From an uncultured Clostridia bacterium (lineage in GTDB: Bacteria > Bacillota > Clostridia > Christensenellales > Borkfalkiaceae): 32,000 bases of DNA. The stretch covers positions 1 to 32,000 of the forward strand of contig CAZDZH010000011.1 of assembly GCA_964509935.1 (NCBI GenBank), written 5' to 3'. Below, piece after piece: positions 1,292-23,208 of this stretch. A program made the translations under genes and the position numbers. Under the pieces are notes generated by a model. The model had not been told where the DNA came from. It saw nothing but the letters and a program-made list of their open reading frames with translations, and made no database searches. How positions within the stretch are numbered: the first letter of the stretch is position 1; every line of letters starts with the position of its first letter.

Positions 1292-1320
1292 TTGATTTAT
1301 ATCGTCGATTTTGATATAAT
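1292..1320 (+). promoter_or_regulatory. Promoter of the nine-gene acyl-transfer operon (TTGATT - 17 nt - TGaTATAAT)
   Basis: TTGATT at 1292-1297, extended -10 TG at 1312-1313 and TATAAT at 1315-1320. A 7-bp inverted repeat (TTATATC 1297-1303 / GATATAA 1313-1319) overlaps the spacer and the -10. Confidence 0.65.
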
Positions 1321-1356: not shown

Positions 1357-3303
1357 ATGACTGACGCAAAAGTTAAAAGCACGCTAGGCGGTTATTCATC
1401 GATAAATACGTACGTAAAAGGTAAAATAGAAAAGTTTTCGGCAACCGACAAGAGTTTTTCATCACTGTTCTCTCTTATGTTTTCCGAGAAGGAAAACGCT
1501 ATGTTCGAGAGTACGGACGGCTATAAAATAAGGACCGTTTCGTACGGCGAAGCCGAGAAGAGGGTGGGGTTGTATTCTAAAAAACTCAATCACCTGTTGC
1601 GTGGCGCGGAAAAGGACTGCTTCGTAGGAATATCCATGCGCAATTCCGAAGAATGGATAGAAATTTTCTGGGCAGTGCTTATGAGCGGATTTAAGCCGCT
1701 TCTGTTCAATACGCGTCTTAGCGAAGAAATACTAAACGGAATATGCTCGACATACGGCGTCTTGGCGGTAATAAGCGACAGGACGCGTTACTGCGCTAAA
1801 ACCGTGTATCCGGAGGAGCTTTTAAACCTTCCTGACGGCGAATCTGACGGCAAATGGGGAAGCGGAATAATAGTGATGTCCTCGGGCACTTCCTTAAACG
1901 TAAAACTGTGCGAATATACGTCCGAGCAGATATGGTATCAGATAAACGACAGCGCAAAAATAATTACCGAATGCAGGCGGATATCAAAGCATTATAACGG
2001 CAGCCTCAAACTGCTTACGTTTTTACCTTTTTATCATATTTTCGGTCTTGTCGCCGTATATATCTGGTTTGCTTTCTTTTCTCGTACTTTCGTCCTTTTA
2101 AAGGATTTAAACGCCGACACGCTTTTAAACACCGTGCGCAAGCATAAAGTTACGCACATTTTTTCCGTTCCGCTCTTATGGAATAAAATCTACGACGCGG
2201 CGATTGCTAAAATAAAGGCGAAGGGTGATAAAACGTATAATAAATTCATAAAAGGTCTTGCAATCAGCGACAAAATTGCAAATGTTCCCCTACTTGGCGA
2301 AGCATTCGCGCGCAAAGCGTTTAAAGAAGTGCGCGACAATATTTTCGGCGACAGCATACAATTTTTAATAACCGGCGGAAGCGCGGTATCGCGTGAAGTT
2401 ATGCGCTTTTTCAACGGTATAGGTTATCGTCTTGCCGACGGGTACGGAATGACGGAAATAGGCATTACTTCCGTAGAGCTTTCCGATAACCGCAAATATC
2501 TCAATTCGCGCTCGGTCGGTCGTCCGTTCTCTTCGGTAGAATACAAAATCAATCAATCGGGTGAGCTTCTGGTTCGCGGAAAATCAATCGCTTCCGCTAT
2601 AATGCAGAACGGAGAGCGCAAACGCGTAGACAACTGCGAGTGGTTCAATACTCACGATTTCGCGCGGTTCGAGGACGGAAGATTTTATATAGAAGGTCGC
2701 CGAGACGACCTGATAGTATGCAGAAGCGGTGAAAATCTCAATCCTGAGCTGATGGAAAGCTTTATTAATATTGACGGAGCAAACGGCGTTTGCATAACCG
2801 CTTCGGGAAGCGGAGAAAGCATTTCGCCCGTGCTTTTGGTAAGCGTGAAAAAATATCTCCCGTCCGATAGATTGCGCGAAATAAAGTCGCAAGCCGCAGA
2901 GCAGATTAAACGCCTTAAACTTGACGGCGACGTAGAAAAGATTTTGTTAATTACCGACCCGCTTTTGCAGGGCGAAGAATTTAAACTGAACAGAATACGA
3001 ATAAAAAACAGTTTGAATTCCGGCATATTGCATATCGTCAATCCCGATATAAGCCGCGTGCAGGAGGACGACGCAGAGCTTGCCGCAGCAGTGTGCGCTT
3101 GCTTCGCGTCGGCGTTGAATAAAGACGTTGCCGATATTTCTTACGACGCGGACTTCTTTACCGATTTGGGAGGCACAAGCTTAGATTATTTCGCCTTGCT
3201 TTCGTTCATTAAAGATGAATTCGGCGCGTCGCTTCCGACGGATGACGAAAGCGGAATAAGCACGGTCAGTCAATTCGTAAAATTCATCAGCTCGCATATT
3301 TGA
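1357..3303 (+). CDS. Acyl-adenylating enzyme (ACSL/FAAL-like AMP-binding domain) fused to a C-terminal PCP-type carrier domain
   Basis: ANL-superfamily motifs are present: a divergent P-loop SSGTSLNVKL, YGMTE, GRRDDLIVCRSGENLNPELME and a FKLNR A10-like Lys. An ACSL-style insertion (KIYDAAIAKIKAKGDKTYNKF) is also present. The C-terminus carries FFTDLGGTSLDYF, a GGxS phosphopantetheine attachment motif with Ser608 at nt 3178-3180. Confidence 0.85.
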   Translation: MTDAKVKSTLGGYSSINTYVKGKIEKFSATDKSFSSLFSLMFSEKENAMFESTDGYKIRTVSYGEAEKRVGLYSKKLNHLLRGAEKDCFVGISMRNSEEWIEIFWAVLMSGFKPLLFNTRLSEEILNGICSTYGVLAVISDRTRYCAKTVYPEELLNLPDGESDGKWGSGIIVMSSGTSLNVKLCEYTSEQIWYQINDSAKIITECRRISKHYNGSLKLLTFLPFYHIFGLVAVYIWFAFFSRTFVLLKDLNADTLLNTVRKHKVTHIFSVPLLWNKIYDAAIAKIKAKGDKTYNKFIKGLAISDKIANVPLLGEAFARKAFKEVRDNIFGDSIQFLITGGSAVSREVMRFFNGIGYRLADGYGMTEIGITSVELSDNRKYLNSRSVGRPFSSVEYKINQSGELLVRGKSIASAIMQNGERKRVDNCEWFNTHDFARFEDGRFYIEGRRDDLIVCRSGENLNPELMESFINIDGANGVCITASGSGESISPVLLVSVKKYLPSDRLREIKSQAAEQIKRLKLDGDVEKILLITDPLLQGEEFKLNRIRIKNSLNSGILHIVNPDISRVQEDDAELAAAVCACFASALNKDVADISYDADFFTDLGGTSLDYFALLSFIKDEFGASLPTDDESGISTVSQFVKFISSHI

Positions 3304-3312
3304 TTTATACCT

Positions 3313-3954
3313 ATGAATAAATTCGTAACGGCATTTACAAAATTAACCGCGTGGCCGGTTCAATTCTTTTGTTTCCGAACCAAAGTATATTTTGAAAGTA
3401 AAAAACAGAAAAACAACCGCGTCAAAGGTGCGGCTATAATAATTTCTAACCATACGGCTTTGTACGATTTCGCGGTGATGCTCTTCGTATTCTGGCGCAG
3501 GATTATACGCTGTCAGGCGGCGGAAGTGCTGTTTAAAAAGAAAGGTCCTCTGCCCTGGTTTCTCAGGGCGTTAGGCTGTATCGAAGTCAACAGAGAAACG
3601 CATAATTTTTCGTTTGTCAGTAAAAGCGAGCAGATACTCGACGACGGCGGGGTAGTGTGTATTTTTCCCGAATCACGACTGCCGAAGCCCGAAGAAGAAA
3701 GACCGCTCGAATTTAAACCGAGCGCGGTTTATATAGCTCTGCAAACAGGCGCGCCGATAATTCCCGTTTACACGAACGGCAGTTATTTCAAACGCAAGCG
3801 GGCGAGGGTAATGATAGGCGATAAAATCTACGCGCGCGAGCTTTTACGCGAAGATTTGACTGAAAAGGAAAATATAGCCAATATTAACGCTATTATAAGA
3901 AAAAAGACGATAGAGCTTAAAGATGAACTCGAAAGAAGAATCAAAAATAAATAA
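3313..3954 (+). CDS. PlsC/LPLAT-family acyltransferase (lysophospholipid acyltransferase-like), copy 1
   Basis: HX4D catalytic motif NHTALYD, FPESRL (a variant of FPEGxR), and the PIIPV block. The protein is about 213 aa. Confidence 0.8.
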   Translation: MNKFVTAFTKLTAWPVQFFCFRTKVYFESKKQKNNRVKGAAIIISNHTALYDFAVMLFVFWRRIIRCQAAEVLFKKKGPLPWFLRALGCIEVNRETHNFSFVSKSEQILDDGGVVCIFPESRLPKPEEERPLEFKPSAVYIALQTGAPIIPVYTNGSYFKRKRARVMIGDKIYARELLREDLTEKENIANINAIIRKKTIELKDELERRIKNK

Positions 3955-4591
3955 GTATAGAACGCCTGATAATTATTTTGTCTACGATTTCATTAAAGTT
4001 ACGGGCGCGCCTTCCGCATTGATTTGGTTAAGACCGAAAAACATTTATTACGGCGATTCTAAAAAGAGAATAAAGGGCGGGGCGATAGTGTGTTGCAATC
4101 ATCTCGGCGTAACCGACCCTATCTACATACATTGCACCTTCTGGTACAGAAGACTGCATTTCGTGGCAATGAAGGAGCTGTTTGAAAGCGGACGGTCGTC
4201 GTGGTTTTTTCACAGGATGCACTGCATACCTATCGACAGAAATAATTTCAACTTCGGGTCGTTTAAAGAAATATGCAAGGCTGTTAACCGCGGAAAGATG
4301 GTCGTGCTTTTCCCCGAAGGCGGAATAAATACCGAGCAATCTAAAATTTCAGATTTTAAGTCGGGTATAGTTTTAATGGCGTATAAAAGCGGCGTGCCGA
4401 TAGTGCCTATATACAACGTACCTAGAAAAAAGTGGTACGACAGACTTAAAACGGTCGTCGGCGAACCGATAAACGTGAAAGAAATTCTCGGTGATAAGCC
4501 GTCTATGAGCGATATTGAAAGAGTGACTGTTTTGCTTCACGAGAGAGAGGTGGAGCTTATGAATTATTATAACGGCAAATGGAAGAAATAA
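3923..4591 (+). CDS. PlsC/LPLAT-family acyltransferase, copy 2
   Basis: HX4D motif NHLGVTD, FPEGG and VPIVPIY. The N-terminal region aligns with copy 1 (FVYDFIKVTG.. versus FVTAFTKLTA..). ATG 3923 is the only in-frame start and overlaps the upstream gene by 32 nt. Confidence 0.8.
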   Translation: MNSKEESKINKYRTPDNYFVYDFIKVTGAPSALIWLRPKNIYYGDSKKRIKGGAIVCCNHLGVTDPIYIHCTFWYRRLHFVAMKELFESGRSSWFFHRMHCIPIDRNNFNFGSFKEICKAVNRGKMVVLFPEGGINTEQSKISDFKSGIVLMAYKSGVPIVPIYNVPRKKWYDRLKTVVGEPINVKEILGDKPSMSDIERVTVLLHEREVELMNYYNGKWKK

Positions 4592-6105
4592 TGGAAAAAG
4601 TAGATTCCGTATGGGCAAAATATACGGATAAAGAGACGTTTGAAAGAATCGTCGATTATGAAAGCGTAGGCGATATGTGGGCGCACTGCGTTAAGGAGTT
4701 TTCGCAGAAAACGGCAATAGTCGACGGCGAGGAATATACCTATTCTCGGCTTGACGGATACGTGGCGCGTTTCCGCACGGCTCTTAAAAATAACGGTTTG
4801 GGTAAAGGCGGTCTTACAGGTATTTTATTGCCCAATTCGGTAGGGTTCGTCACCGCTTTTCTTGCCGTCACGACTTACGGAGCCGCCGCGGTGCTGTTCC
4901 CCGTACATATGGAAATCGGTAAAATACGCAGTTATATGCAGAAATTCAGCGTAACCGCATTGATTCACGACTATTCCACGGCTGAAACGGCGCAAAAAGC
5001 CGTTGACGGCGGCGAATGTACGCTAATAAATGTAAATAACCTTCCCGAAGAAAGCACGCCAGCAAACGAGTGTTCCCCGTCAGACGCGTGCGCGGTAATA
5101 TTTACGAGCGGAACGGACGGAAGAGGAAGGGGAGCTCTGCTAAATAACAGGGCTGTTATGCGAGGAGTTAAAAACGGCTGTTTCGGATATAAGGACGTGT
5201 TCGGACAGCGTTATTTCCTTATTTTGCCTCTTACTCACGTGTTCGGGCTTGTAAGGAATATGCTAACGCCCCTATATACGGGCAGTTCGCTTTATATCAG
5301 CGACAGAAACAAAAACCTGTTCAAAGAGATTTCTAAATTCAATCCGACTGTACTTGTTCTCGTGCCGGCACTTGCGGAAATGGCGTTGAATTTTTCAAAA
5401 CATTTTAAAAGAAATATGCTGGGTGACAGCGTAAAGTATATAATATGCGGCGCGGCGGCGGTTCCTCCTTATCTTGTTAAGAGCTACGCTGAATACGGTA
5501 TAAAGCTTTTCCCCGGCTACGGATTGACCGAAAGCGCGAATCTTGTAAGCGGAAATCCCGAAAGTCTTAATAAACCGGATTCTGTGGGGATCATTTACGA
5601 GGGGCTGGATTATAAAGTTGTGGACGGCGAGCTGTGGCTTAAAGGCGTCAACATGATGGACGGGTATCTTAACGATTCCGCCGAAAATGCCTCTGCTTAC
5701 TGCGGCGATTGGTTTAAGACGGGCGACCTCGTAAAGTTCGACGACGAAGGATTCCTGTATATAGTTGGCAGGAAAAAGGATATTATCGTATTGTCTAACG
5801 GCGAAAACGTTTCTCCCGTTGAGATAGAAACTAAATTTACCGATTTGTCCGTCGTTCAGGACGCTTTGGTGTACGAGGGTAAAAACGAAAACGGCAAACA
5901 GATTCTCGTTCTGGAAGTTTATCCGAGGAACGTAGAGCTTGAAAAACTTGAAAAGGCAGAGCGAGAGCCTTATTTAAGAAAGGTTATTGCCGATGTGAAC
6001 GAAACTTTGCCGTCGTTCGGGCGAATCCAGAAAGTTATTATCAGGGACAAGGACTTTGAAAGAAATTCCTCAATGAAAATAATCAGGAAAAAACATAATG
6101 ACTAA
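4591..6105 (+). CDS. AMP-dependent acyl-CoA/acyl-ACP synthetase (fatty-acid ligase-like)
   Basis: FTSGTDGRGRG P-loop, GYGLTE, WFKTGD, GRKKDIIVLSNGENVSPVEIE and a terminal SSMKIIRK (A10 Lys). I prefer ATG 4591, which forms a TAATG overlap with the upstream stop and has GGAAGA upstream. The ORF track's ATG 4579 is the alternative start. Confidence 0.85.
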   Translation: MEKVDSVWAKYTDKETFERIVDYESVGDMWAHCVKEFSQKTAIVDGEEYTYSRLDGYVARFRTALKNNGLGKGGLTGILLPNSVGFVTAFLAVTTYGAAAVLFPVHMEIGKIRSYMQKFSVTALIHDYSTAETAQKAVDGGECTLINVNNLPEESTPANECSPSDACAVIFTSGTDGRGRGALLNNRAVMRGVKNGCFGYKDVFGQRYFLILPLTHVFGLVRNMLTPLYTGSSLYISDRNKNLFKEISKFNPTVLVLVPALAEMALNFSKHFKRNMLGDSVKYIICGAAAVPPYLVKSYAEYGIKLFPGYGLTESANLVSGNPESLNKPDSVGIIYEGLDYKVVDGELWLKGVNMMDGYLNDSAENASAYCGDWFKTGDLVKFDDEGFLYIVGRKKDIIVLSNGENVSPVEIETKFTDLSVVQDALVYEGKNENGKQILVLEVYPRNVELEKLEKAEREPYLRKVIADVNETLPSFGRIQKVIIRDKDFERNSSMKIIRKKHND

Positions 6106-6352
6106 GGAAGAAATTAAAGAAAAATTACGGGAAATACTAAAACTATCTACAGATTGCACGGAAGAGCAGGCAATGTCTTACGACGAGCAATCGGGATTGA
6201 CTAGCGACCTCGGCTTGAATTCGGTCGGAATGCTTTATCTAGTTATCGCAGTCGAAGAATTTTTCAATATAGAGTTCGACGACGTGAATTTCAGCGATTT
6301 TAAAGTCGTGGGCGACGTAGTCGATTATATTTACGGAAAAAAGAACGGTTAA
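6098..6352 (+). CDS. Stand-alone acyl carrier protein
   Basis: An 84-aa acidic four-helix-type protein with DLGLNSVGML. The attachment Ser42 is at nt 6221-6223. The gene overlaps the upstream ligase by 8 nt. Confidence 0.8.
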   Translation: MTKEEIKEKLREILKLSTDCTEEQAMSYDEQSGLTSDLGLNSVGMLYLVIAVEEFFNIEFDDVNFSDFKVVGDVVDYIYGKKNG

Positions 6353-6354
6353 AA

Positions 6355-7410
6355 ATGAAGTGGGTGCTTGAAGAGGCGCAGTCAGGAGATATCGTACGCG
6401 TTCGCCTCGGCGAAATTTATCATTACGGAATTTTCGTTAGCGAAAGCGAGGTAATACAGTTCGGTATGCCTCCCGTAAACGTTGAAATGCTTGCGCGCGT
6501 CGACGTGAGGGTTTGCTCAACTGATATAGATACTTTCCGTTGCGGCAAATTTCCGGAAGTCGCGAAGCTTTCGCTTATAGAAAGATTAAAGCGCTTTTCT
6601 CCCGAAAAGACTGTGGCGACGGCTCGCGCAAGGTTAGGCGAATGTGGATATAATATAATTCACAATAATTGCGAGCATTTCGTTTACGAATGCGTATTCG
6701 GGACAAAATACAGCGCACAGACGGAAGACGTAAGGCAAAAATTCAGGAATCTTCCCATTACCGATATTTACGTTTCGCCTATCCCCGAACACGTTAAAAT
6801 TACTGGACTTTCCTGCGAGGGAAGAAACGCCGAAATAGAAGCTTGCTCCAATATAAAGGTAAAGGAGCAGAAATACTATGTTTGGAAACTTCTTGAAGCG
6901 GCGTTACAATATTCCCTCGGCTTAGACGCGGGCAAAATTACGTTCCGACGTTCGGAAAACGGGAAATGGGGCTGTAAAGAGTGTGAATTTTCGCTGTCGC
7001 ACAGTCAAGGCGCGGCGGCGGTCATCATCTCGCGCAGTCCCGCAGGAATTGACCTCGAAAAAATCAAACATACGGAGAAAACAGCGCGATATGCGCAAAA
7101 AGTTCTTACCGTAACGGAAAATGAAATTTTTTCAGCCTTGTCCGAAGAGGATAAGGACGACTTGTTTTACGGCTTTTGGTCCGCAAAGGAAAGTATATTC
7201 AAACAATCCGGCGAACGCTCTTTCAATCCTGTCGCAATCGAAGTCTCGTCATATATGGGCGTGAAATCAGGTATAGTCCGAATCGAAGGCGAGGATTACG
7301 CGCTTTCCTTTGTATCGGATACGAAAGCGAAAGAACGGTTTTATATTTATAATGGCGGGCAAACTACCGCTTTTAATGGTTTTACCCGAACACTTAAATT
7401 AGATAAATAA
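6355..7410 (+). CDS. Fusion protein: N-terminal LRAT/PLAAT-like (NlpC/P60 Cys-His) domain plus C-terminal Sfp-type 4'-phosphopantetheinyl transferase
   Basis: N-terminus: the YHYGIF His box (His23) and the NNCEHFV catalytic Cys box (Cys106, nt 6670-6672). C-terminus: FSLSHS, GIDLEKI and WSAKESIFK, which are Sfp-type motifs 1-3. Confidence 0.8.
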   Translation: MKWVLEEAQSGDIVRVRLGEIYHYGIFVSESEVIQFGMPPVNVEMLARVDVRVCSTDIDTFRCGKFPEVAKLSLIERLKRFSPEKTVATARARLGECGYNIIHNNCEHFVYECVFGTKYSAQTEDVRQKFRNLPITDIYVSPIPEHVKITGLSCEGRNAEIEACSNIKVKEQKYYVWKLLEAALQYSLGLDAGKITFRRSENGKWGCKECEFSLSHSQGAAAVIISRSPAGIDLEKIKHTEKTARYAQKVLTVTENEIFSALSEEDKDDLFYGFWSAKESIFKQSGERSFNPVAIEVSSYMGVKSGIVRIEGEDYALSFVSDTKAKERFYIYNGGQTTAFNGFTRTLKLDK

Positions 7411-7448
7411 CACCCCCGCGCTTAATCGGCGCGCTCACGGAGAAAACT

Positions 7449-8378
7449 ATGGACTGGTATTGGATAGCTTTAATATTAACCGTCGCGATAATCGCGCCGT
7501 TTATCCTTGCCTGTTTTACGGTTTTCTATAAAATATTCGGCAGGGGGAAAGAAGTTTCGCTCGCCGACGCCGACCTCGACGGCACGCAGTATATGCCCTA
7601 TAAGGATAAAATATGCACGGCGATAAGAGAGGTTGAGGCTTTACGTTTCAGAAAGGTACGGATAGAGAGAGAATGCAGTCTTTTCGGATATTATTACGAT
7701 TGCGGCGGTAAAAATACCGTTATTATGTTTCACGGCTACCGAGCCACGCCGTTCAATAATTTTGCCGTTTCCTGCAAAATTTTTATGGAAAAAGGCTACA
7801 ACGTGCTTATGCCCGTTCAGCGCGGACACGGCGAAAGCGGAGGAAAATTCATAACCTTCGGAGTAAAAGAACGGCTTGATTGCCTTGCCTGGACGGATTT
7901 TGCGGTTAAAGAATTAAAGCCCGAAAATATTGTTTTATACGGCGTATCTATGGGTAGTTTTTCTTTGATGTGCATATCCGACAGATTGAGCGATAAAAAC
8001 GTTAAAGCTCTTATCTGCGATTGCGGTTACCTCAACGCTTATGACGAGATAGGTCTGGAAATGAAGAGGAGAGCGGGTTTTCTTTATAAGATTATGATGC
8101 CTTTTATAAGGCTCGGCGCGATAGTATTCGGGGGATTCGACCCCGCGAAAGACAACGCGTGCGAATATCTTTCTAAGGCTTCCGTTCCCGTGTTCTTCAT
8201 ACACGGCGACGATGACAGAATTGTGCCCGTAGAGTGTGCGAAAAGGGCTTACGAAGCCTGTGATTCGCGAAAGTCTATATATTACGTGCAAAATTGCGGA
8301 CATGCCCAATCCTTTCTTGCCGACGAAGGCAAACTCAGCGAAAAGCTGTTTGATTTTCTGAACGACGCGCTTAAATAA
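7449..8378 (+). CDS. Membrane-anchored alpha/beta hydrolase (lysophospholipase/esterase-like)
   Basis: An N-terminal TM helix, the GVSMG nucleophile elbow, an HGDDDRIVP acid region and CGHAQSF His. GGAG lies 8 nt upstream of the ATG. Confidence 0.8.
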   Translation: MDWYWIALILTVAIIAPFILACFTVFYKIFGRGKEVSLADADLDGTQYMPYKDKICTAIREVEALRFRKVRIERECSLFGYYYDCGGKNTVIMFHGYRATPFNNFAVSCKIFMEKGYNVLMPVQRGHGESGGKFITFGVKERLDCLAWTDFAVKELKPENIVLYGVSMGSFSLMCISDRLSDKNVKALICDCGYLNAYDEIGLEMKRRAGFLYKIMMPFIRLGAIVFGGFDPAKDNACEYLSKASVPVFFIHGDDDRIVPVECAKRAYEACDSRKSIYYVQNCGHAQSFLADEGKLSEKLFDFLNDALK

Positions 8379-8413
8379 GCGTTGTATTATAAACCTGATT
8401 ATAAGGAGTTATT

Positions 8414-9343
8414 ATGAAAAAATTTATAGTTATGGCGGACGTGTGCTGCGATTTATCGGAAGAATTGAGAAAGCGTTTCGATATTCAATACATAAAAGGG
8501 CATATGACTCTGCCCGACGGTTCTACCGCGGAAACAACCTGCGACTGGAATACAATGGACGCAAAGCAATTTTATGCTTCGCTTAAAAACAAAAAGAACG
8601 TATATACTACCTCGCCTGCGAATATCGACGAATTTGCCAATGCATTCGAAGATTACGTTAAAGACGGTTACGACGTTCTTTGCCTTACCATTTCTTCTGC
8701 TCTTAGCGGCACTTACAGCTTCGCAAGCAAAGCGAAAGAACAGGTATTGGCTAATTATCCGGACGCTAAAATTTACGTTATCGATTCGCTGCGTTTTTCA
8801 AACGGGCTCGGGCTTCTTACTATCCACGCAAGTATTCTGCGCGAACAGGGAAAAACCATCGAAGAGACGGCGGCTTGGCTTGAAGAGAATAAAAACCGTT
8901 TCCATCAGTCGGGCTGGTTAGATGATTTGTCTTTCGTGGCGCAGAAGGGTCGAATTTCTCATAGCAAGGCTTTCTTCGGCACTTTGATTGGTATTAAACC
9001 GATAGGCGAATTTGACTATAACGGACTTACCACCGTTCTCGGCAACGCAAAGGGCGAAAAGGCGGCTTACAGCGTACTGTTAAATTACATAGAGAAGGTT
9101 ATCGAAAACCCCGAAGAGCAGATAATTCTGATTGCTCAGACCGACAGAAAGAGGCAAGCCGAAGCCTATAAAGTAATGCTGGAAGAGAAGTTCCACCCCA
9201 AGGAAATTATCATTACGGACGTTTATCCTGCGGATGGAATAAACTTAGGACCCGGACTGATGGCTGCATACTATATGGGCAAACCCATCTCCCAAGGACT
9301 TGTGGACGAGCGCGCGATAATAGAGGATTTGCTTGCGAAATAA
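8414..9343 (+). CDS. fakB: DegV-family fatty-acid-binding protein (FakB-like)
   Basis: An N-terminal VMADVCCDL block (equivalent to the DegV TDSxxDL block), SSALSGTY, and about 309 aa. A strong AAGGAG RBS is present. Confidence 0.8.
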   Translation: MKKFIVMADVCCDLSEELRKRFDIQYIKGHMTLPDGSTAETTCDWNTMDAKQFYASLKNKKNVYTTSPANIDEFANAFEDYVKDGYDVLCLTISSALSGTYSFASKAKEQVLANYPDAKIYVIDSLRFSNGLGLLTIHASILREQGKTIEETAAWLEENKNRFHQSGWLDDLSFVAQKGRISHSKAFFGTLIGIKPIGEFDYNGLTTVLGNAKGEKAAYSVLLNYIEKVIENPEEQIILIAQTDRKRQAEAYKVMLEEKFHPKEIIITDVYPADGINLGPGLMAAYYMGKPISQGLVDERAIIEDLLAK

Positions 9344-9346
9344 TTT

Positions 9347-10984
9347 ATGGATATATATAACTTAGACGGTTGCGTCTTTTACGATATGGTATGCAACGGT
9401 CTGGCAAATATCAGACTCAGCGAAATAACCATAAACAGACTCAATCTGTTCCCCGTTCCGGACGGCGATACGGGCACGAATATGCGCCTTACGTTGGAAG
9501 GAGGAGTTGCGGCTTGCAAAAAAACTCCGTCAATCGGCGAATATGCTAACAAGTTAGCCCGCGGTATGCTTATGGGCGCCAGAGGTAATTCGGGCGTAAT
9601 TCTCTCTCAGATATTCAAAGGAATCGCGCTCGCGCTTACGGATAAACAGACGGCGACTGCGATAGATTTTGCATACGCTCTGGTCAGCGGTTATAAGATG
9701 GCTTATTCGGCGGTGGTTCACCCCACCGAGGGAACTATTCTTACGGTCGCGCGAGAAGGCATAGAAAAAATCATTAACGAAATCAACGGCGCAACAACTA
9801 TAAACGCCCTGTTTACCGCATATCTGCATCAGATGGAAATAACTCTGTCACATACGCCCGAAATGTTGGAAGTATTAAGGGAAGCGGGATTCGTAGACAG
9901 CGGCGGTCAGGGATTGGTTACAATTTTCAGGGGTATGCTTAAATTCCTTACGGGCGACGTGCTGGAAACCGAACTGCCCGAACAACCTGCCGCGAATCAT
10001 GTCGACGAAGCGTCGTTTGACGCGGACAGCGAACTTGATTTCGGATATTGTACCGAGTTTATATTGCAGTTGCAGAATATAAAATGCAACCCCGCTCTGT
10101 TCGATTTAAATTGTTTTATATCCTTTCTCGAAACGCAGGGCGATTCTATCGTCGCGCTCAAAGAGGAAACGCTGGTAAAGGTGCATATACATACAAAAAT
10201 GCCCTCCGCTATTATAGCAAAAGCGCAGGAATACGGCGAGTTTATTTCGTTTAAAATGGAAAATATGGCTTTACAGCACAATGAAAATTTTACTAAAAGC
10301 CAAAGCAAAAAGTCGCATAAAGCCATTGCTTACGTCTGCGTGGCACAGGGCGACGGAATAATTTCTCTGTTTGAAAGTCTGGGGTGCGACGTGGTTCTTA
10401 ACGGCGGACAGACTATGAATACTTCCGCGGAAGAATTTGTAGACGCGATAAACAGCCTGAACGCCGATTCTGTTATCGTGATGCCGAACAATAAGAACAT
10501 AATTTCCGCAGCTTTGCAGGCGAAAGAGCTTTGCGGAAGGCAGAACGTTTACGTGCTTGAAACGCAGTCGGTAGCCGAGTGCTATTTTGCACTTTCAACA
10601 ATGCTTTCCGACGGAAGCGATTGTACGGTACAGCTTGAAGCAATGCGCCGCGGCTATCAGAACGTAACAACCGTCGCTGTGGCCAAAGCCGCCCGCGATT
10701 CTTTTGTCGGCGGAGTGGAATGTAAAGCAGGTCAGTACGTCGCCGTTTTAAACGGCAAAATAGTGTGCGCCGCAGCCGACCCGATTGTTGCGCTGCGCGA
10801 CGGTATAAAGTACGATAAATCCAACCTTGACAAAGAAATAATGCTTGTCTTTACGGGTCAGGCACTTAGCGAAGACGCCGCCGAGGGATTGGAAGAGGCG
10901 CTCTTTTCGGAATTTCCCGATATGGAAACGGGAATTATCGACGGCGGTCAGGACGTGTACGACCTTATCGTAGGGTTAAGTTGA
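9347..10984 (+). CDS. fakA: DAK2/DhaL-domain protein of the YloV/FakA type (fatty acid kinase catalytic subunit-like)
   Basis: The DhaL motif FPVPDGDTGTNM near the N-terminus, about 545 aa, and a C-terminal DegV-like half typical of YloV/FakA. The gene starts 3 nt after the DegV stop. Confidence 0.8.
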   Translation: MDIYNLDGCVFYDMVCNGLANIRLSEITINRLNLFPVPDGDTGTNMRLTLEGGVAACKKTPSIGEYANKLARGMLMGARGNSGVILSQIFKGIALALTDKQTATAIDFAYALVSGYKMAYSAVVHPTEGTILTVAREGIEKIINEINGATTINALFTAYLHQMEITLSHTPEMLEVLREAGFVDSGGQGLVTIFRGMLKFLTGDVLETELPEQPAANHVDEASFDADSELDFGYCTEFILQLQNIKCNPALFDLNCFISFLETQGDSIVALKEETLVKVHIHTKMPSAIIAKAQEYGEFISFKMENMALQHNENFTKSQSKKSHKAIAYVCVAQGDGIISLFESLGCDVVLNGGQTMNTSAEEFVDAINSLNADSVIVMPNNKNIISAALQAKELCGRQNVYVLETQSVAECYFALSTMLSDGSDCTVQLEAMRRGYQNVTTVAVAKAARDSFVGGVECKAGQYVAVLNGKIVCAAADPIVALRDGIKYDKSNLDKEIMLVFTGQALSEDAAEGLEEALFSEFPDMETGIIDGGQDVYDLIVGLS

Positions 10985-11059: not shown

Positions 11060-11902
11060 TTATCCGTTTTCTTCTATGAATTGTTTAAAATTTATAAATT
11101 CATAGCCCGTTTTTTTTAAAAATCCTATAAGCTTTCCTATTCTTTCGAGATAGTTCTTTCTGCTGCATTGGATATACAATTTATCGTGCAGGGAAAGATT
11201 ATCGGGGTAAGACAGCTTGTCTTTAAAAACCTCAAACGGGTGAACGTAGAAAAGATATGCGTCAGCGTTTTTTAAGTATCGCTTGACGGTAAACGTAATA
11301 AATGGTAATAATCTGAAATATCCCCCGCCCGAAACGGGAATGCGCCTGCCGAAATAATGCGAAGAGCAGGGTTTGAATTCGTAAAAGCCGTCGTTTTCAT
11401 AAGCGACATCGTTTAATTTTTTAAAGCGCGATAAATCTATTTTGCCTGAATTGACGGCGGGTGAAAAATCGAGGTCGCTGGAATCGTATTTAAACCCCAT
11501 AGAGTAAAGCTTTGCGACTGTTTCGTCGCTGACGCCGAAGCACGGGGCGCGGTAGCCTATAATTTTCGTTCCGAATTTTTCTTCGAGCACGCGTTTAGCG
11601 GTAACGGTATCGTTTATGAATCGCTTGTCCGACTGCGTAAGGGGCGAAACGTGGTTTAGTCCGTGTAAGGCTATTTCGTGTCCTTCTGAAATAGCATTCT
11701 TTAACTGACTGCCGCATTTATCCGCAAACGATGCAACCGTAAAAAACGTGCCTTTTATGCCGTGTTCGTTTAACAGTCCGCAAAAATCTTCTACCGACTG
11801 TTCGCATTGCGGACAGCTTTCCGGGCGGTAGTTTAATTCTTTTAAACAGCGAGCGTCGAGATAACTTTCGACGTCCATGCTCATAAACGCTAATTTACGC
11901 AT
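11060..11902 (-). CDS. Polysaccharide deacetylase (NodB fold) with a DUF3473-like C-terminal region; no signal peptide
   Basis: SMDVESY (a variant of the DVED motif 1), HEIALHGLNH (the His-His metal motif), YRAPCF and VSGGGYFRLLPF (DUF3473-type signature). It overlaps the upstream gene by 8 nt. Confidence 0.8.
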   Translation of the reverse strand: MRKLAFMSMDVESYLDARCLKELNYRPESCPQCEQSVEDFCGLLNEHGIKGTFFTVASFADKCGSQLKNAISEGHEIALHGLNHVSPLTQSDKRFINDTVTAKRVLEEKFGTKIIGYRAPCFGVSDETVAKLYSMGFKYDSSDLDFSPAVNSGKIDLSRFKKLNDVAYENDGFYEFKPCSSHYFGRRIPVSGGGYFRLLPFITFTVKRYLKNADAYLFYVHPFEVFKDKLSYPDNLSLHDKLYIQCSRKNYLERIGKLIGFLKKTGYEFINFKQFIEENG

Positions 11903-12869
11903 CGAATTTCTCTTGTATAAACTTTTGTATCGCCTCGTCGTACGCTTCTTTGTTGTTTATTCTGATATGAGAATGAGCTCCCTTATCGAACCATACGAGC
12001 TGTTTATCCGATTTACATTTGTCGTAAAGTATTTGCGCCTTTTCGGGTAAAGAAAACTTATCTTCCTTACTGTACAGGAATAGAATAGGCGCTTCAAGCT
12101 TGTCGATGCATTTTATTGGTCCGTACGTCATTCTGACGCCCGAATACAAGCGCATTATAAGCGCAATTTCCCAAATGAAAGGATAGATGGGGCGTTTTTC
12201 CTCTATCATATGGTTTTTAAAGGTTTCGTAAAAGGTAGTATACATACCGTCGGCGACTATACCCTGCATATAATCGGGGCAAGCCTTGCTAGTCAAAGCG
12301 TACAACGCCGTGGCAGAACCTATGCAAATGCCGTGCAATAAAATCTTTTTGTTCAGGAACTTATCGTGAAGGAGTTTCGCCCAGGCGAGTATATCCTTGT
12401 ATTCTTTCAGCCCGACGCAATCGTATTTTCCCTCGCTTAGACCGTGCGCCCTGTTGTCTATCACAAGCACGTTATAACCGGCTCGCTTATAGGGTTCGGA
12501 AAAATAATAGCTGTACCAAAGTGATTCAGTTCTGCCGGGTATCACTATGACTGCGCGGTCGCAGCCGAAGTCGAAGTATTCGCCGACAAGCTTAAATCCC
12601 TCGCTCGTAACCGAAACTTCTGTAATATATTCTCTGTTTTTTTCCGCCCATTGCTTGCCCGTATCGTACATCGCTACCTGTTCGGCATTGTCTGGGGCGG
12701 AGCACTCTCTTCCCCATTTTTCCGATGAGGTGCGTACGAGTTGGCTTTTATATACTTTTAAGGCAATAAACCAAGGGGGGAGAAATACGAAAACTATTAG
12801 TGCGACGAGCGCGCCGACGATAGAAAGACTTATTATCAGACCGTAGTTTGTAAGTACAGAAGTTATCAT
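11895..12869 (-). CDS. Membrane-anchored alpha/beta hydrolase with Cys at the nucleophile-elbow position
   Basis: An N-terminal TM helix. It is a paralogue of the 7449..8378 protein (GYNVLVIDNRAHGLSEGK versus GYNVLMPVQRGHGESGGK). The elbow is GICIG, with Cys182 encoded by TGC at 12324-12326, where the paralogue has GVSMG. Confidence 0.8.
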   Translation of the reverse strand: MITSVLTNYGLIISLSIVGALVALIVFVFLPPWFIALKVYKSQLVRTSSEKWGRECSAPDNAEQVAMYDTGKQWAEKNREYITEVSVTSEGFKLVGEYFDFGCDRAVIVIPGRTESLWYSYYFSEPYKRAGYNVLVIDNRAHGLSEGKYDCVGLKEYKDILAWAKLLHDKFLNKKILLHGICIGSATALYALTSKACPDYMQGIVADGMYTTFYETFKNHMIEEKRPIYPFIWEIALIMRLYSGVRMTYGPIKCIDKLEAPILFLYSKEDKFSLPEKAQILYDKCKSDKQLVWFDKGAHSHIRINNKEAYDEAIQKFIQEKFDA

Positions 12870-14012: not shown

Positions 14013-14052
14013 TTCAAAGAAAGGTATAAGATAAAAATAGTAAAACTTGAAA

Positions 14053-14081
14053 TTGACAAATCTGGTAACATATAGTATAAT
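14053..14081 (+). promoter_or_regulatory. Consensus promoter (TTGACA - 17 nt - TATAAT) for the N/G/Y-rich membrane protein gene
   Basis: TTGACA at 14053-14058 and TATAAT at 14076-14081, with an exact 17-nt spacer. It is divergent from the GT2 operon promoter. Confidence 0.75.
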
Positions 14082-14106
14082 AAAATCGCAAATAAAGGAG
14101 GAATAT

Positions 14107-14712
14107 ATGAACGATCAGGAAAAGAACGACGAGCTGTTCGGTTTCGACAACGCAAACGGCGTAAATCCTAACGGAAATTACGGCAATCAAAGTCAGTCTG
14201 CTGGCGGAAATTATTACAATAACGGTTATAATAATCCCAATAACGGCAATAACGGTTATTATGGTAATAATAACAACTATAACGGCGGTTATAACGGGAA
14301 TAATTATAACGGCAATAACTACGGCGGCAACAACTATTATAACAATAACGGCAATAATTCCGGAGACGATCCCGGTCCTTGGAAGGTTTTTGCTATCGTT
14401 GGGTTCAGTATTGGCATAGTTGCTATCGTTCTCGGCGGTTTAGCGGGATTGTATTCATTTCTCGCTTTAATCAATATAAATTCTCAAAACGTCAACTATG
14501 CGCTTTTTGCATCGTTGAGCGTCCTCTTTTTTATATATGGAATAGCGTCGGGCGTGCCTGCTATCGTTTTTTCCGTGCTGGGATTAAGGTCAACCCGTCG
14601 CGTAGATAAGGCAAAGACGGGCTTGATACTTTCAGTAGTGGGGACGGGAATTGCTTTTGTTTCTTTTATAATGGCGATAGCAATTATCCCTACTATAGCT
14701 ACGTTTATTTAA
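14107..14712 (+). CDS. Membrane protein with an Asn/Gly/Tyr-rich low-complexity N-terminus and a 4-TM C-terminal domain (DUF4190-like architecture)
   Basis: I trimmed the start to ATG 14107, which has AAAGGAGG 6 nt upstream. About 85 residues consist almost entirely of N, G and Y (e.g. NGNNYGGNNYYNNNGNN), followed by four hydrophobic helices. Confidence 0.7.
   Translation: MNDQEKNDELFGFDNANGVNPNGNYGNQSQSAGGNYYNNGYNNPNNGNNGYYGNNNNYNGGYNGNNYNGNNYGGNNYYNNNGNNSGDDPGPWKVFAIVGFSIGIVAIVLGGLAGLYSFLALININSQNVNYALFASLSVLFFIYGIASGVPAIVFSVLGLRSTRRVDKAKTGLILSVVGTGIAFVSFIMAIAIIPTIATFI
14149..14364 (+). repeat. Degenerate codon-level repeat tract (AAT/AAC-GGC-TAT units) encoding the N/G/Y-rich region
   Basis: Reiterated aataacggc, aattataac and ggcaataac units lie in frame inside the CDS. 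Confidence 0.6.
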
Positions 14713-14738: not shown

Positions 14739-15803
14739 ATGGACGCGAGAAAGAAGAAAAAAATCATAGCCGCTATTACGGCTGTCGCAGCGGGCAGTCT
14801 AAGTCTGGCTACCGTAGTTACGTCCGTAAACGTCTACGATTCGTTTTTCAAACGCTTTGAAAGACCCGATTATAACCTTGTCGCGGGCGTTTATAATTAC
14901 GAGCTTGTCAGGCAGGACCTTCCCAGGGAAGAGTTCTATTTTAAGTCGGACGGCGTTAATTTAAAGGGCTATTTATATCTGCAACAAAACTCTAAGGGGC
15001 TTGTTGTGGTCTGTCACGGCATTCACGCGGGCGCAGACGATTATCTTCCGGCGATAAATTATTTTTACGAAAATTCGTTCAGCGTTTTCGCGTTCGATTA
15101 TAAGGGTACTTACGATTCCGGCGGCGACGGAACCGTAGGAATGTGCGAATCGTTGGTAGACCTCGATCACGCATTGAACTACGTTTCCACCGACGCAAGG
15201 ATAAACGGATTGCCTTTGTTTCTGTTCGGTCATTCCTGGGGCGGATACGCGGTAACTTCTGTGCTTGCTATTCATAAAGAGGTGAAAGCCTGCGCCGCTG
15301 TGGCGGCTATGAATAACGGCTTTACGATGATTTTAGAAAAAGGGGAGGAATACGCAGGAAAATTTTCCTCTTTCCCAAAACCCTTCCTCGACGCGTATCA
15401 GTCGGCGCTCTTCCGCGATTACGTAAAGTATAACGGCGTCAAAGGAATAAATTCTACCGATATTCCCGTATTGCTGGCGCACGGCGTAAACGACAGGGTT
15501 ATTGCTTTCAACAGACAATCGGTTATTTCACATAAAAATGAGTTTACCAATCCAAACGTAATTTACTACGAGGGAGTAGGTTATCAGGGCGACCACAATA
15601 ATATCTGGCATTCCGTCGCCGCCGCAGAATATCAGGCGGAAGTAAAAGCGATGCTTGCCGACCTGAAAAAAAGTAAAGGGCGCGAACTCACTTACGAAGA
15701 AAAGACGGAATTTTATAAAACCGTCAATCACGAACTGTACAGTCAGGTAAACGAAGAGCTGTTTGAAAAAATTATAACTATGTATGAAAACAGTATAAAT
15801 TAA
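14739..15803 (+). CDS. Signal-anchored alpha/beta hydrolase (esterase/lipase or S9-like)
   Basis: A basic N-terminus plus a hydrophobic helix (KKKKIIAAITAVAAGSLSLATVV), the GHSWGG nucleophile elbow, an AHGVNDRV acid region and GDHNNIWH. Confidence 0.8.
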   Translation: MDARKKKKIIAAITAVAAGSLSLATVVTSVNVYDSFFKRFERPDYNLVAGVYNYELVRQDLPREEFYFKSDGVNLKGYLYLQQNSKGLVVVCHGIHAGADDYLPAINYFYENSFSVFAFDYKGTYDSGGDGTVGMCESLVDLDHALNYVSTDARINGLPLFLFGHSWGGYAVTSVLAIHKEVKACAAVAAMNNGFTMILEKGEEYAGKFSSFPKPFLDAYQSALFRDYVKYNGVKGINSTDIPVLLAHGVNDRVIAFNRQSVISHKNEFTNPNVIYYEGVGYQGDHNNIWHSVAAAEYQAEVKAMLADLKKSKGRELTYEEKTEFYKTVNHELYSQVNEELFEKIITMYENSIN

Positions 15804-17696: not shown

Positions 17697-18845
17697 ATGA
17701 GAATTCTTCACACTTCCGATTGGCATATCGGTAAAAAACTTATGGGCAGGGACAGAAGTCCTGAATTTATTTCCGTTTTAAATGAAATAGCGGATATATG
17801 CAGGGATGAACGCATCGAACTCTGCCTTGTCGCCGGCGACGTTTTCGACACTTATACCCCCGCCGCGGAAGCCGAAGAGATTTTCTACAACGCGGTTAAA
17901 AATATAGCGCGGTATTGCGCGGTGCTTATAATTTCGGGAAATCACGACGATTACGTGCGCCTTACCGCAGCGGCGGCTCTTGCAGGCGAACTTGGTATTT
18001 ATATAGTCGGAAATAATCTTTCAGCGATAAAGTGCAAAAAGACAGGGGAATGTTACCCTGCGGAAAGTGACGACGGTTGGGTAATATTTGAAAATTCAAA
18101 GGGAGAAAGGGTCTATATAGACGCGTTGCCCTATCCCAATGAAGCACGTTTCAAAGAGGGCAAGTCGGACGAAACTTTCGACGATAAGATGCGTCGCTGG
18201 ATAGATTTCGGCGAACGCGGCAACGTCGCCAAACTGCCCTCTGTATTCTTATCGCATATATTCGCTTTGGGCGGAAGCGTAGACGGTACAGAGAGGGAAA
18301 TCGACCTCGGCGGAGCGAGGCTTGTAAAAACCGAATTGCTTCCCGATTGCGATTATATCGCTTTGGGTCACCTCCATAAGAGGCAACGCCTCGGCAAAAA
18401 CGTTTATTATAGCGGCGCGATAATGAATTTTTCGTTTGATGAAGCCGCTACGGAAAAATCTGTCAATATTTTCGATTTAGGAGCGGACGGCGTAAAAAAT
18501 TTACGCCTGATTGCGCTTAAAAGCATAAAAAAACTCGTAAGATTGCAGGCTTTGTCCGCGGAAGAAGGCATCAGGCTTTTAAATGAGAACGCTGAAAGCT
18601 ATGCAGAGCTTACTTTGAATCTTTCGCAACCATTGAATCATACTCAGACGGTAGAACTGCACAGATGCGCAAATCTCGTATCTTTGAAAACTAACGTTGA
18701 AGGTATCAATTACGGAGCGGTTGCGGCTACGAGAAGGGGCAAAAGCGCTTCGCAGCTGTTCAGCGACTACTATAAAATCAGGTATAACGCCGAACCGTCA
18801 GACAAACTGAAAGAGTTGTTTCTTTCCCTAACGGAGGAAGAATGA
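17697..18845 (+). CDS. sbcD: Exonuclease SbcCD, nuclease subunit D (Mre11-like phosphoesterase)
   Basis: MRILHTSDWHIGK, VAGDVFD, SGNHD and GHLH phosphoesterase motifs. An ATGA overlap links it to the downstream sbcC. Confidence 0.9.
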   Translation: MRILHTSDWHIGKKLMGRDRSPEFISVLNEIADICRDERIELCLVAGDVFDTYTPAAEAEEIFYNAVKNIARYCAVLIISGNHDDYVRLTAAAALAGELGIYIVGNNLSAIKCKKTGECYPAESDDGWVIFENSKGERVYIDALPYPNEARFKEGKSDETFDDKMRRWIDFGERGNVAKLPSVFLSHIFALGGSVDGTEREIDLGGARLVKTELLPDCDYIALGHLHKRQRLGKNVYYSGAIMNFSFDEAATEKSVNIFDLGADGVKNLRLIALKSIKKLVRLQALSAEEGIRLLNENAESYAELTLNLSQPLNHTQTVELHRCANLVSLKTNVEGINYGAVAATRRGKSASQLFSDYYKIRYNAEPSDKLKELFLSLTEEE

Positions 18846-21516: not shown

Positions 21517-23208
21517 TTGAAGGAGTATGATTTGTCAAATATTTTGACGCCGAGTTCACTTTGGAAGGATTTTAACGACGGGCTAGATCTTTGCCCCGTT
21601 AAATTGGAAGAGAAAGTCGAGGACGGCATAAAATACGAATACGTTACCTTTTGCGGTAGAGATACGGGAGAAGGCAGAGTGCTTATCTATGCGGTTTTTG
21701 CGAGTTCTGTCGACAATCCTTCCGCCGACGGAGTTCTCGTACTGCCTGACGGCGGGCAGACGGTAGACGAAAGGCTGCTTAAAATGTTCGTCGAAAACGG
21801 TTATTCCGCATTAATGGTCGATTACCGAGGGAAGTGGGAGGGCGCCGAGCGCTACACCGTTTATCCGGATATTATATCCTACGCTAATTTTGCAACCTGC
21901 GGAAGATTTAAAGATTACGTAGATGAAAGCGCCGATAAAACAAGCTGGTACGAATGGGTTGCCGTCGGCATTTATTCGGTAAAATATCTGCTTGCAAGGG
22001 TTCAGAATAAGAATATTGCGGTTGTAGGTCTGCGCGACGGCGGAGAAATCGCCTGGAAGCTTGCATATTGCACGCGCCTTGCCTGCGCGGTCACCGTTTG
22101 CGCGGGAGGCTGGAAAGTATATGCCGGTTACGATAAATTCGGCGGGGAAGAACCTGAGTTGGACGAAGAAAGACACCGCTTTCTTGCGGGCATAGATTCT
22201 CAGGCTTACGCGCCGTACGTAAATTGTCCCGTCCTTATGCTCTGTTCCACCAACGACCCCGATTTCGATTACGACAGGGCGTACGATACATTTTCAAGAA
22301 TAAATCCCGAGTATGCGGAAGAGAGCGTTATTTCCTATTCGGTTAGAGCTAACGCCTGCGTCGGTATGAACAGTCTTAAAGATATGTTTATGTTTTTGGA
22401 CAGGTCGGTCAAACGCCGCAACGTATACGTCTCCAAGCCTGCCGAAATCACCGTGTCCGTAGACGAGGATGAAAATTTGATTGCAACCGCAACTTTCGAT
22501 GACTTCGGAGAAGTTTCTAAGTTTAAAATGTTTATGGCGGAAGACTGTATAAATTCTAAACTTAGGGATTGGTTCGAGGTTGAATATAAGAGAAAAAAAT
22601 CGGATACCGAACACGAATTCTATCTCAACGTTTACGAAAAAACTTCGATAGTCTTTCTGCTCTGCTGCGTAACGTATACCAACGGATTTACCGTATGGTC
22701 AAAGATCGTCGTAAAGAAAATCAACGGACAGTTCCGCAACAGCCAGCCTAAAAGCAACGTTCTGTATTCCTGTAAACGAGGTATAGACTGTTTTACCATA
22801 GCGGATTACAGGGCTAATTCGATAGGCGATACGATTATCAACAGCGATGAGGTTCTGCCAAAAATCGTAACAAAAGCCAAAGGATTGAAAGGATTATATT
22901 CTGCGGGCGGACTATCGACTTTCAGGCTTAACAGCCCGCAGTTTTCTCCCCGTGCGGACAGTATAATTAAGCTTGACGTATGCGCAGACAGCGATTGCGT
23001 TCTCGTACTTATTATGGAAAATCTTAGCGGGGGCGAAGCTTACGTTAACAAAGTTAGCGTAGTAGGCGGCGTATGGCAAAGCGTTCTTTTAAAAAGCCAG
23101 CAGTTTAAGAACGATAACGGCAAACCGCTTTCCGATTTCGCGCAGGGGTTGCATTTTGTTATCAAATGTAACGCTCCTTACGCAATCAACAACGTTATGT
23201 GGCTTTAA
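21517..23208 (+). CDS. Alpha/beta-hydrolase-fold-like protein (acetyl-esterase/dienelactone-hydrolase-like N-terminal half) with an uncharacterised beta-rich C-terminal half
   Basis: The N-terminal approx. 280 aa show the alpha/beta-hydrolase pattern (VLVLPDGG, GYSALMVDYRG, NIAVVGLRDGGEIA, PVLMLCSTNDPDFD). The elbow reads GLRDG rather than GxSxG. The start is uncertain: either TTG 21517 or in-frame TTG 21532, which lies 6 nt after AGGAG. Confidence 0.55.
   Translation: MKEYDLSNILTPSSLWKDFNDGLDLCPVKLEEKVEDGIKYEYVTFCGRDTGEGRVLIYAVFASSVDNPSADGVLVLPDGGQTVDERLLKMFVENGYSALMVDYRGKWEGAERYTVYPDIISYANFATCGRFKDYVDESADKTSWYEWVAVGIYSVKYLLARVQNKNIAVVGLRDGGEIAWKLAYCTRLACAVTVCAGGWKVYAGYDKFGGEEPELDEERHRFLAGIDSQAYAPYVNCPVLMLCSTNDPDFDYDRAYDTFSRINPEYAEESVISYSVRANACVGMNSLKDMFMFLDRSVKRRNVYVSKPAEITVSVDEDENLIATATFDDFGEVSKFKMFMAEDCINSKLRDWFEVEYKRKKSDTEHEFYLNVYEKTSIVFLLCCVTYTNGFTVWSKIVVKKINGQFRNSQPKSNVLYSCKRGIDCFTIADYRANSIGDTIINSDEVLPKIVTKAKGLKGLYSAGGLSTFRLNSPQFSPRADSIIKLDVCADSDCVLVLIMENLSGGEAYVNKVSVVGGVWQSVLLKSQQFKNDNGKPLSDFAQGLHFVIKCNAPYAINNVMWL

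Follow-up and report, generated by a model that had tools for sequence, protein, structure and literature searches.

Among the known systems closest to the one that we describe here is LplT-Aas, with which Gram-negative bacteria take up and re-acylate lysophospholipids. In the LRAT/PLAAT family, all characterized enzymes, to our knowledge, move an acyl group from a glycerophospholipid to an active-site cysteine, and from there to water or to a lipid acceptor. Here, we analyze a window of 32,000 nucleotides (nt), the whole stretch of DNA under study (positions 1 to 32,000 of contig CAZDZH010000011.1, assembly GCA_964509935.1), from an uncultured Clostridia bacterium of the Borkfalkiaceae. One gene in the window (6355..7410, forward strand) joins an LRAT/PLAAT-type Cys-His domain to an Sfp-type phosphopantetheinyl transferase (PPTase), and it lies within nine tightly packed or overlapping genes of the same strand (1357-10984). 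In related genomes, the LRAT domain is the constant part of this operon slot, and the PPTase half is dispensable. The operon around it is what points to the likely role of the LRAT domain.

The open reading frame (ORF) starts with ATG and runs uninterrupted for 351 amino acids as a single protein. Only 2 nt separate it from the stop of the preceding gene, for an acyl carrier protein (ACP) of 84 amino acids (6098..6352), an adjacency already described in the original prediction, which was made from the sequence of the window without database searches. The five motifs quoted there are all found at the positions it gave them. In the LRAT half (residues 1-120, nt 6355..6714, forward strand, as are all features of this gene), His23 (nt 6421-6423) is within YHYGIF and Cys106 (nt 6670-6672) within NCEHF, and the alignment adds Gln35 (nt 6457-6459) to the catalytic codons. 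An inter-domain linker helix follows (residues 121-134, nt 6715..6756), and then the Sfp-type PPTase domain (residues 135-351 and the stop codon, nt 6757..7410), with His216 (nt 7000-7002) within FSLSHS, Asp233 (nt 7051-7053) and Glu235 (nt 7057-7059) within GIDLE, and Glu279 (nt 7189-7191) and Lys283 (nt 7201-7203) within WSAKESIFK. Both domains are placed by profile, alignment, and structure match.

That these motifs belong to an LRAT/PLAAT domain and to an Sfp-type PPTase, as the original prediction had it, is borne out by Pfam, by sequence matches in the PDB, and by Foldseek comparison of a predicted structure, so that profiles and structure both support both folds. Pfam LRAT (PF04970) matches residues 8-117 with E=3.1e-16 and 60.2 bits against a cut-off of 24.3, covering positions 3-118 of a profile of 120, and Pfam ACPS (PF01648) matches residues 231-289 with E=7.2e-11 and 42.5 bits against a cut-off of 25. 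TIGR00556 scores 41.9 bits on the PPTase half, slightly under its cut-off of 45.35, and none of the named NCBIfam PPTase equivalogs reached its cut-off (score and cut-off in bits: HetI 46/370, AcpT 46/174, EntD 31/169, AusB 32.5/225). A sequence search of the PDB finds Sfp (1qr0, E=6e-8, residues 181-292) and human PLAAT3 (4dot, E=0.003, residues 5-127).

The AlphaFold2 model of the 351-amino-acid protein, built on 26 homologues, has a mean predicted local distance difference test score (pLDDT) of 90.5 and a predicted template modelling score (pTM) of 0.67. It lays out strands and helices at residues 2-115, a helix at 121-132, and a two-half α/β domain at 135-340. Searched against the PDB with Foldseek, residues 135-351 match Sfp in its complex with a peptidyl carrier protein (4mrt_A, E=3.5e-11, 226 columns, target-normalized template modelling (TM) score 0.65), and also the group II PPTases AASDHPPT, PptT, and PcpS. 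PLAAT2 (HRASLS2), PLAAT3, and PLAAT4 are matched too, with target-normalized TM scores of 0.75-0.81.

Residues 135-351 thus have the two-half, single-chain layout of the Sfp type, and FSLSHS, GIDLE, and WSAKESIFK are the motifs of a group II PPTase. In an alignment of 26 sequences (A1), the invariant PPTase positions include S213, H216, G231, D233, E235, W275, K278, E279, and K283. The LRAT half has the order of a permuted papain-like enzyme, by sequence and by Foldseek, with the catalytic His23 N-terminal to Cys106, and its invariant positions in A1 include H23, Q35, and N105-C106-E107-H108-F109. A classification of papain-like enzymes (PMC10318531) lists LRAT only as a Cys-His-His (CHH) lipid-enzyme family; where that triad has its second His, this protein has Gln35. 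From these residues, both halves of the protein look catalytically competent.

Is the fusion native? A search over 5.8 billion proteins returned 439 matches to the LRAT-PPTase protein, and among the 120 matches listed, all have both Pfam domains, at 319-351 amino acids and 40-48% identity. A genome scan, run on one genome per species and using the LRAT motifs as search patterns, finds relatives encoded in at least 507 species-level genomes. Frame and junction were a concern of the original prediction, which considered that an assembly or sequencing indel could have joined two genes between nt 6700 and 6800. That region (residues ~116-149) is gapless across 25 homologues at 40-48% identity, and R127, P134, and Y139 are conserved in it. 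The frame is native, and the same fusion is found in hundreds of independently assembled genomes; no point in support of an indel was found, and we regard that explanation as refuted for practical purposes.

We kept 80 loci from the genome scan for the comparison of genomic context. All are Clostridia metagenome-assembled genomes from gut, rumen, or faeces, and the groups among them include Oscillospiraceae, Acutalibacteraceae, Christensenellaceae, Ruminococcus, Saccharofermentans, Mageeibacillus, Candidatus Scatosoma, and Faecousia. One locus, L074 (contig CAZCKS010000003.1), has the full Clostridia-type operon and is recorded as 'uncultured Bacteroides sp.', probably a binning or naming error.

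The fusion had been called unusual. This holds in the sense that PPTases are normally stand-alone or fused to synthases, and that we found no paper describing this fusion, but the architecture itself is common. Full-text searches of the literature turned up neither the fusion nor the operon, nor any function assigned to a bacterial LRAT protein. Both domain families are textbook material, and NCBI already lists the fusion, though by generic names such as 'lecithin retinol acyltransferase family protein' and '4'-phosphopantetheinyl transferase superfamily protein'. On present evidence, this is not a categorically new mechanism.

The LRAT domain comes in four forms in this operon: with an apparently active PPTase, as here, with a dead or truncated PPTase, as a stand-alone protein of ~138 amino acids, and fused to the second PlsC. 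H23 and NCEHF are present in all four. Queried with nothing but the LRAT domain (residues 1-132), an exhaustive HMMER search gives 305 cluster representatives at E≤1e-10, and we read the catalytic columns from an alignment of the best 150 of these 305. His23 and Cys106 are kept in ~143 of the 150, while the PPTase tetrad (H216, D233, E235, and E279) is complete in 74, and 8 more have three of the four residues. Among 32 mid-length proteins (200-314 amino acids), 28 keep at most one residue of the tetrad. These dead forms have lost the region from GxDxE to WxxKE, and what remains is the N-terminal half of the PPTase fold and its last β-strands, in which Pfam no longer detects ACPS. Several full-length proteins carry dead PPTase substitutions as well (for example, FSLACA, GLAVEN, and WTRKQS). 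And 24 of the 29 short proteins (<200 amino acids) keep His23 and Cys106, and none of the PPTase residues.

These variants sit in the same genomic setting. Loci L069, L072, L077, and L078, from four species, have dead PPTase halves inside otherwise complete operons, and in L078 the serine motif of the ACP is intact; genomes without an active fused PPTase presumably rely on another PPTase. The stand-alone LRAT proteins are a real family (75 matches). Three independent contigs (L084, L085, and L086) encode A-ACP (an adenylating enzyme with a C-terminal carrier), a major facilitator superfamily (MFS) transporter in some cases, PlsC, PlsC, adenylase, and ACP, and then an LRAT protein of 138-141 amino acids. 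In locus L081, LRAT is found at the C-terminus of the second PlsC (5505-6668; protein P0260, 387 amino acids), which has an N-terminal hydrophobic segment; that operon reads A-ACP, PlsC, PlsC::LRAT, and has no PPTase.

A few observations on these and other LRAT proteins can be added here. In L081, a metallo-β-lactamase-fold protein and a low-molecular-weight phosphatase are encoded after the PlsC::LRAT gene, and a second PlsC::LRAT protein, P0269, is 61% identical to P0260. Outside Clostridia, L082 associates LRAT with hydrolases: a gammaproteobacterial LRAT-domain protein of 345 amino acids (P0273, 3478-4515) has α/β-hydrolase genes on both sides. P0221, probably eukaryotic, is 1125 amino acids long and is made up of some nine PLAAT-like repeats in tandem, and the motifs HWAVYIG and NCEHF occur in every one of them.

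Even among apparently active fusions, mean pairwise identity is 56% for the LRAT domain versus 32% for the C-terminal half of the PPTase. The original prediction implied a tight catalytic coupling of the two halves, and this is weakened by an intact Cys-His LRAT that persists when the PPTase is dead, truncated, absent, or swapped for a PlsC. Because the LRAT domain is invariant and the PPTase dispensable in related genomes, we take the fusion not to reflect an obligatory catalytic coupling.

The same evidence bears on the first idea of the original prediction, that the protein loads carriers without ATP. In that proposal, which is chemically feasible, an acyl group would move from a membrane phospholipid to Cys106, and then by trans-thioesterification to the phosphopantetheine thiol of a holo-carrier that the neighbouring PPTase has just made. 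As we would extend it, LRAT would be a phospholipid:holo-ACP transacylase, the PPTase or PPTase-like fold a carrier-docking module, and the PlsC enzymes would use the acyl-ACP to re-insert the chain. It has the attraction of unifying both fusion partners, the carrier-binding PPTase and the PlsC with its hydrophobic segment; the ACP gene adjoins the LRAT gene, and LRAT/PLAAT enzymes are established to hand their acyl-Cys to various nucleophiles. But the operon already has one to two adenylases to charge the carriers, and a bypass is not needed. The PPTase being dispensable also counts against it, and we know of no precedent for phospholipid-to-holo-carrier transacylation by an LRAT enzyme. We consider this carrier loading improbable.

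The operon in the window starts with A-ACP, of 648 amino acids (1357..3303, forward strand, as for all genes of the operon; Pfam AMP-binding at residues 57-413 and PP-binding at 578-644), the first of its two carriers, whose carrier region reads DLGGTSLDY. A-ACP heads the operon in nearly all loci that reach that far. Of the promoter-like sites in this region, the best one (1292..1320, forward strand) reads TTGATT-17-TATAAT, preceded by a TG; it lies 37 nt before this first gene, and it is a consensus match only. Two PlsC-type acyltransferases follow. The first (3313..3954, 213 amino acids; PF01553, E=1.4e-19) has the motifs NHTALYD (HX4D) and FPES, and it matches NF006386, 'acyl-[ACP]--phospholipid O-acyltransferase', with E=2e-14, which is under the cut-off of that family. 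The second (3923..4591, 222 amino acids; PF01553, E=8e-24) has NHLGVTD and FPEG, and its best solved relative is the Thermotoga maritima PlsC 5kym.

The second adenylating enzyme (4579..6105, 508 amino acids; Pfam AMP-binding, E=3.5e-54) is fatty-acyl-ligase-like. Its best NCBIfam matches are long-chain-fatty-acid ligases, all under cut-off, and its PDB relatives are oxalyl-CoA ligases, FadD13, and MenE. As hints of a substrate for the adenylases, PDB and NCBIfam offer generic acyl- and aryl-CoA-ligase relatives only. The second carrier is the stand-alone ACP that precedes the LRAT-PPTase gene (6098..6352; Pfam PP-binding, E=6e-7; DLGLNS motif). Downstream of LRAT-PPTase, we find an α/β-hydrolase of 309 amino acids with a membrane anchor predicted at its N-terminal residues 1-19 (7449..8378; Pfam Hydrolase_4 and Abhydrolase_1), a DegV/FakB-type fatty-acid-binding protein (8414..9343; Pfam DegV, E=4e-59), which recurs downstream in many loci, and a protein of the FakA/YloV type (9347..10984; Pfam FakA-like_C, Dak2, and FakA-like_M), the family of the catalytic subunit of fatty acid kinase, with 520 bits to TIGR03599 YloV, over its cut-off.

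To compare the operon across genomes, we searched the 80 related loci with the operon proteins of the window using tblastn. Almost all loci share one order: A-ACP, (MFS_2), PlsC, PlsC, adenylase, ACP, LRAT-PPTase, α/β-hydrolase, and (DegV, FakA). In nearly every locus, the gene just before LRAT is that of the ACP, and in most, an α/β-hydrolase gene comes after LRAT. Some lineages miss the second adenylase, and some both the second adenylase and the ACP. Most loci (for example, L014, L037, and L044) have a transporter of the MFS_2/GPH type (~620-645 amino acids), whose gene follows A-ACP in some of them and separates DegV from FakA in others. The operon of the window has no MFS gene, and MFS_2 is also missing from the four loci with dead PPTase halves inside otherwise complete operons. 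In the three contigs with stand-alone LRAT, a gene for prolipoprotein diacylglyceryl transferase (Lgt) is directly upstream of the operon (L084 2030-2920, L085 282-1091, and L086 1972-2760). We dropped a link to lipoprotein maturation through Lgt, as it is upstream only in these three loci, and absent from the 80 loci and from the window.

Could the operon build a specialized lipid, and not remodel the bulk lipid of the membrane? LRAT would then be a third acyltransferase, one that N- or O-acylates a distinct acceptor (for example, an amine lipid, a lyso-lipid, or a small molecule) from acyl-ACP or from phospholipid. According to PMC11989323, PLAATs act as N- and O-acyltransferases in addition to phospholipases. 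That the operon has carriers of its own and two adenylases that differ from each other suggests acyl groups out of the ordinary, and the MFS_2 present in most versions of the operon could export the product. Yet the conserved core has no gene for an unusual head group, and DegV/FakA together with the α/β-hydrolases point rather to the scavenging of fatty acids. We think a third acyltransferase unlikely.

What we tentatively favor, with confidence a little short of even, is an operon for ACP-dependent deacylation and reacylation of glycerolipids, similar to a Lands cycle, in which the PPTase primes both carriers, and the Cys106-His23 LRAT domain exchanges or removes acyl groups. We infer all substrate assignments in it. 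In the first step, the Sfp-type PPTase would take phosphopantetheine from CoA and place it on the serines of both carriers, the ACP domain in the 648-amino-acid adenylase and the 84-amino-acid ACP, judging from its catalytic residues and its fold. Because it is intact, Sfp-like, and encoded beside two carriers, the PPTase half would most simply be the dedicated carrier-priming enzyme of the operon. The two adenylating enzymes would then charge the holo-carriers with fatty acids, in the manner of acyl-ACP synthetases, as their family membership suggests, and the two PlsC enzymes would pass the acyl groups from the carriers to a lyso-glycerolipid or to glycerol-phosphate, as the acyltransferase half of Aas does. 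The fourth step is the least certain. Cys106 and His23 of LRAT would form an acyl-thioester in a phospholipase A1/2-like deacylation or exchange on the same lipids, which would provide lyso-lipid acceptors for the PlsC enzymes. FakAB, the α/β-hydrolases, and in most genomes MFS_2 would bring in exogenous lipid. And the fusion itself would reflect a shared membership in the operon, and possibly a shared closeness to the carriers. We prefer a membrane glycerolipid as the substrate because of the known chemistry of LRAT/PLAAT enzymes, and because of the PlsC::LRAT protein with its hydrophobic segment.

Several observations weigh against this deacylation-reacylation model. The third triad residue is Gln and not His, at a position that is Q, A, E, S, or H across the wider LRAT family. 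PLAATs are membrane-anchored, and PLAATs and LRAT have a C-terminal transmembrane helix, whereas a Kyte-Doolittle scan of the 351-amino-acid protein finds no transmembrane or hydrophobic segment, and its C-terminus is the PPTase. For a soluble enzyme, acyl-ACP, itself soluble, is no worse a fit as substrate than a membrane lipid. The up to three α/β-hydrolases of the operon could supply the lipase activity. The set of genomes that we compared is blind to relatives with a dead LRAT domain, since the LRAT motifs were the search patterns; the protein searches are free of that bias. Finally, dead PPTase scaffolds have been kept over the long term, a hint that LRAT gains something from the PPTase fold, such as the docking of a carrier, and a PPTase fold that docks carriers would favor a carrier-bound substrate for LRAT.

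Much of this fits carrier proofreading, in which LRAT would be a thioesterase that clears wrongly acylated carriers, with the PPTase fold docking the carrier. The second idea of the original prediction, that the domain edits or off-loads the carriers, is of this kind. The wrong carriers could come from a promiscuous Sfp-type PPTase that uses acetyl-CoA or other acyl-CoAs, or from misloading by the adenylases. The protein is soluble by prediction, it fuses LRAT to an ACP-binding enzyme, and in almost all loci its gene comes straight after that of the ACP or has its translation coupled to it. Dead PPTase scaffolds are kept in ~30 sequence clusters. R15, R91, and R93, conserved specifically in this family and opposite non-basic residues in PLAAT3, could bind an acidic carrier or the phosphate of phosphopantetheine, and Cys-thioester chemistry, established for papain-like and LRAT enzymes, fits thioester substrates. 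On the other hand, we know of no LRAT-family enzyme that acts on thioesters, the stand-alone and PlsC-fused LRAT forms do without the PPTase scaffold, and the hydrophobic N-terminal segment of PlsC::LRAT would put the domain at the membrane. The deletion in the dead variants also removes the WxxKE helix, a region of Sfp that we take, from the 4MRT complex, to contribute to carrier binding. Carrier proofreading is nearly as plausible as the deacylation-reacylation model, and we hold it to be possible, if on the doubtful side.

Outside of the operon, the window encodes housekeeping functions (DnaB, SbcCD-like genes, signal peptidase, PepF, and Sua5). In or near the operon there are three α/β-hydrolases, each with an anchor predicted at its N-terminus: the one described above (7449-8378, forward strand), one at 11895-12869 (reverse strand), and one at 14739-15803 (forward strand), and relatives of all three recur beside the operon in other genomes. 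An ORF of 221 amino acids (14047-14712, forward strand) has an N-terminal half of low complexity, rich in Asn, Gly, and Tyr, and after it three transmembrane helices by prediction. Pfam has no match for this ORF, and its sole NCBIfam match is weak (MAB_1171c family, E=0.005, far under cut-off). Directly after an SbcD/SbcC-like pair (17697-21511), an ORF of 563 amino acids (21517-23208, forward strand) has no match in Pfam or NCBIfam.

In hundreds of species of uncultured Clostridia from gut and rumen, LRAT is an invariant member of this operon. As we read it, the operon gives a concrete setting for how these anaerobes may acquire acyl chains from the lipids of the diet or the host and refashion those of their membranes, and it would link the lipid remodelling of eukaryotic PLAAT/LRAT enzymes to a prokaryotic pathway. 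The biology of PPTases gains LRAT as a fusion partner for which we found no description in the literature. The fused PPTase has decayed into a pseudoenzyme again and again, a natural experiment that shows which half carries the selected function. And if the transacylase reading, which we think improbable, were true, these bacteria would have a carrier-mediated Lands cycle that is independent of ATP.

How does this system compare with the ones already known? With human PLAAT/HRASLS proteins and LRAT (PF04970; 4dot, 4dpz, 7zot, and 7zom), the protein shares the circularly permuted papain-like fold and a His box that precedes the Cys of NCEHF. It differs from them in being bacterial, in lacking the C-terminal anchor, in having Gln for the His in third place of the triad, in its fusion to a PPTase, and in being part of an ACP-dependent operon. 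The other half shares with Sfp of Bacillus subtilis, AcpT, EntD, HetI, PptT, and human AASDHPPT the two-half fold of ~215 amino acids, the motifs, and intact Mg2+ ligands. Like group II PPTases, it has its presumed carrier substrates encoded beside it; unlike them, it has an N-terminal LRAT domain, and related genomes have more than once lost it or turned it into a pseudoenzyme. Type II thioesterases and the acyl hydrolases of trans-acyltransferase (trans-AT) polyketide synthases offer a possible functional analogy only, in the clearing of misacylated carrier arms loaded by adenylases; their folds, α/β-hydrolase or AT-like, have no relation to the papain-like one here.

As a system, the comparison is with LplT-Aas, including the fused MFS-PlsC-acyl-ACP-synthetase proteins PRK08633 and PRK06814. 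The list of parts runs parallel, with an MFS transporter (in most of the related operons), PlsC-type acyltransferases, and an adenylase that would act on ACP, and both PlsC proteins and the 508-amino-acid adenylase match NCBIfam models of the Aas family, with scores far under the cut-offs. The differences are several. The parts are separate genes in the operon, the adenylase, the carrier, and PlsC are each duplicated, and the carriers are dedicated ones, not AcpP. The transporter of most related operons is of the GPH/MFS_2 type and not LplT (MFS_1), and the window has none. And to these parts, the operon adds the LRAT domain, the PPTase, the α/β-hydrolases, and FakAB.

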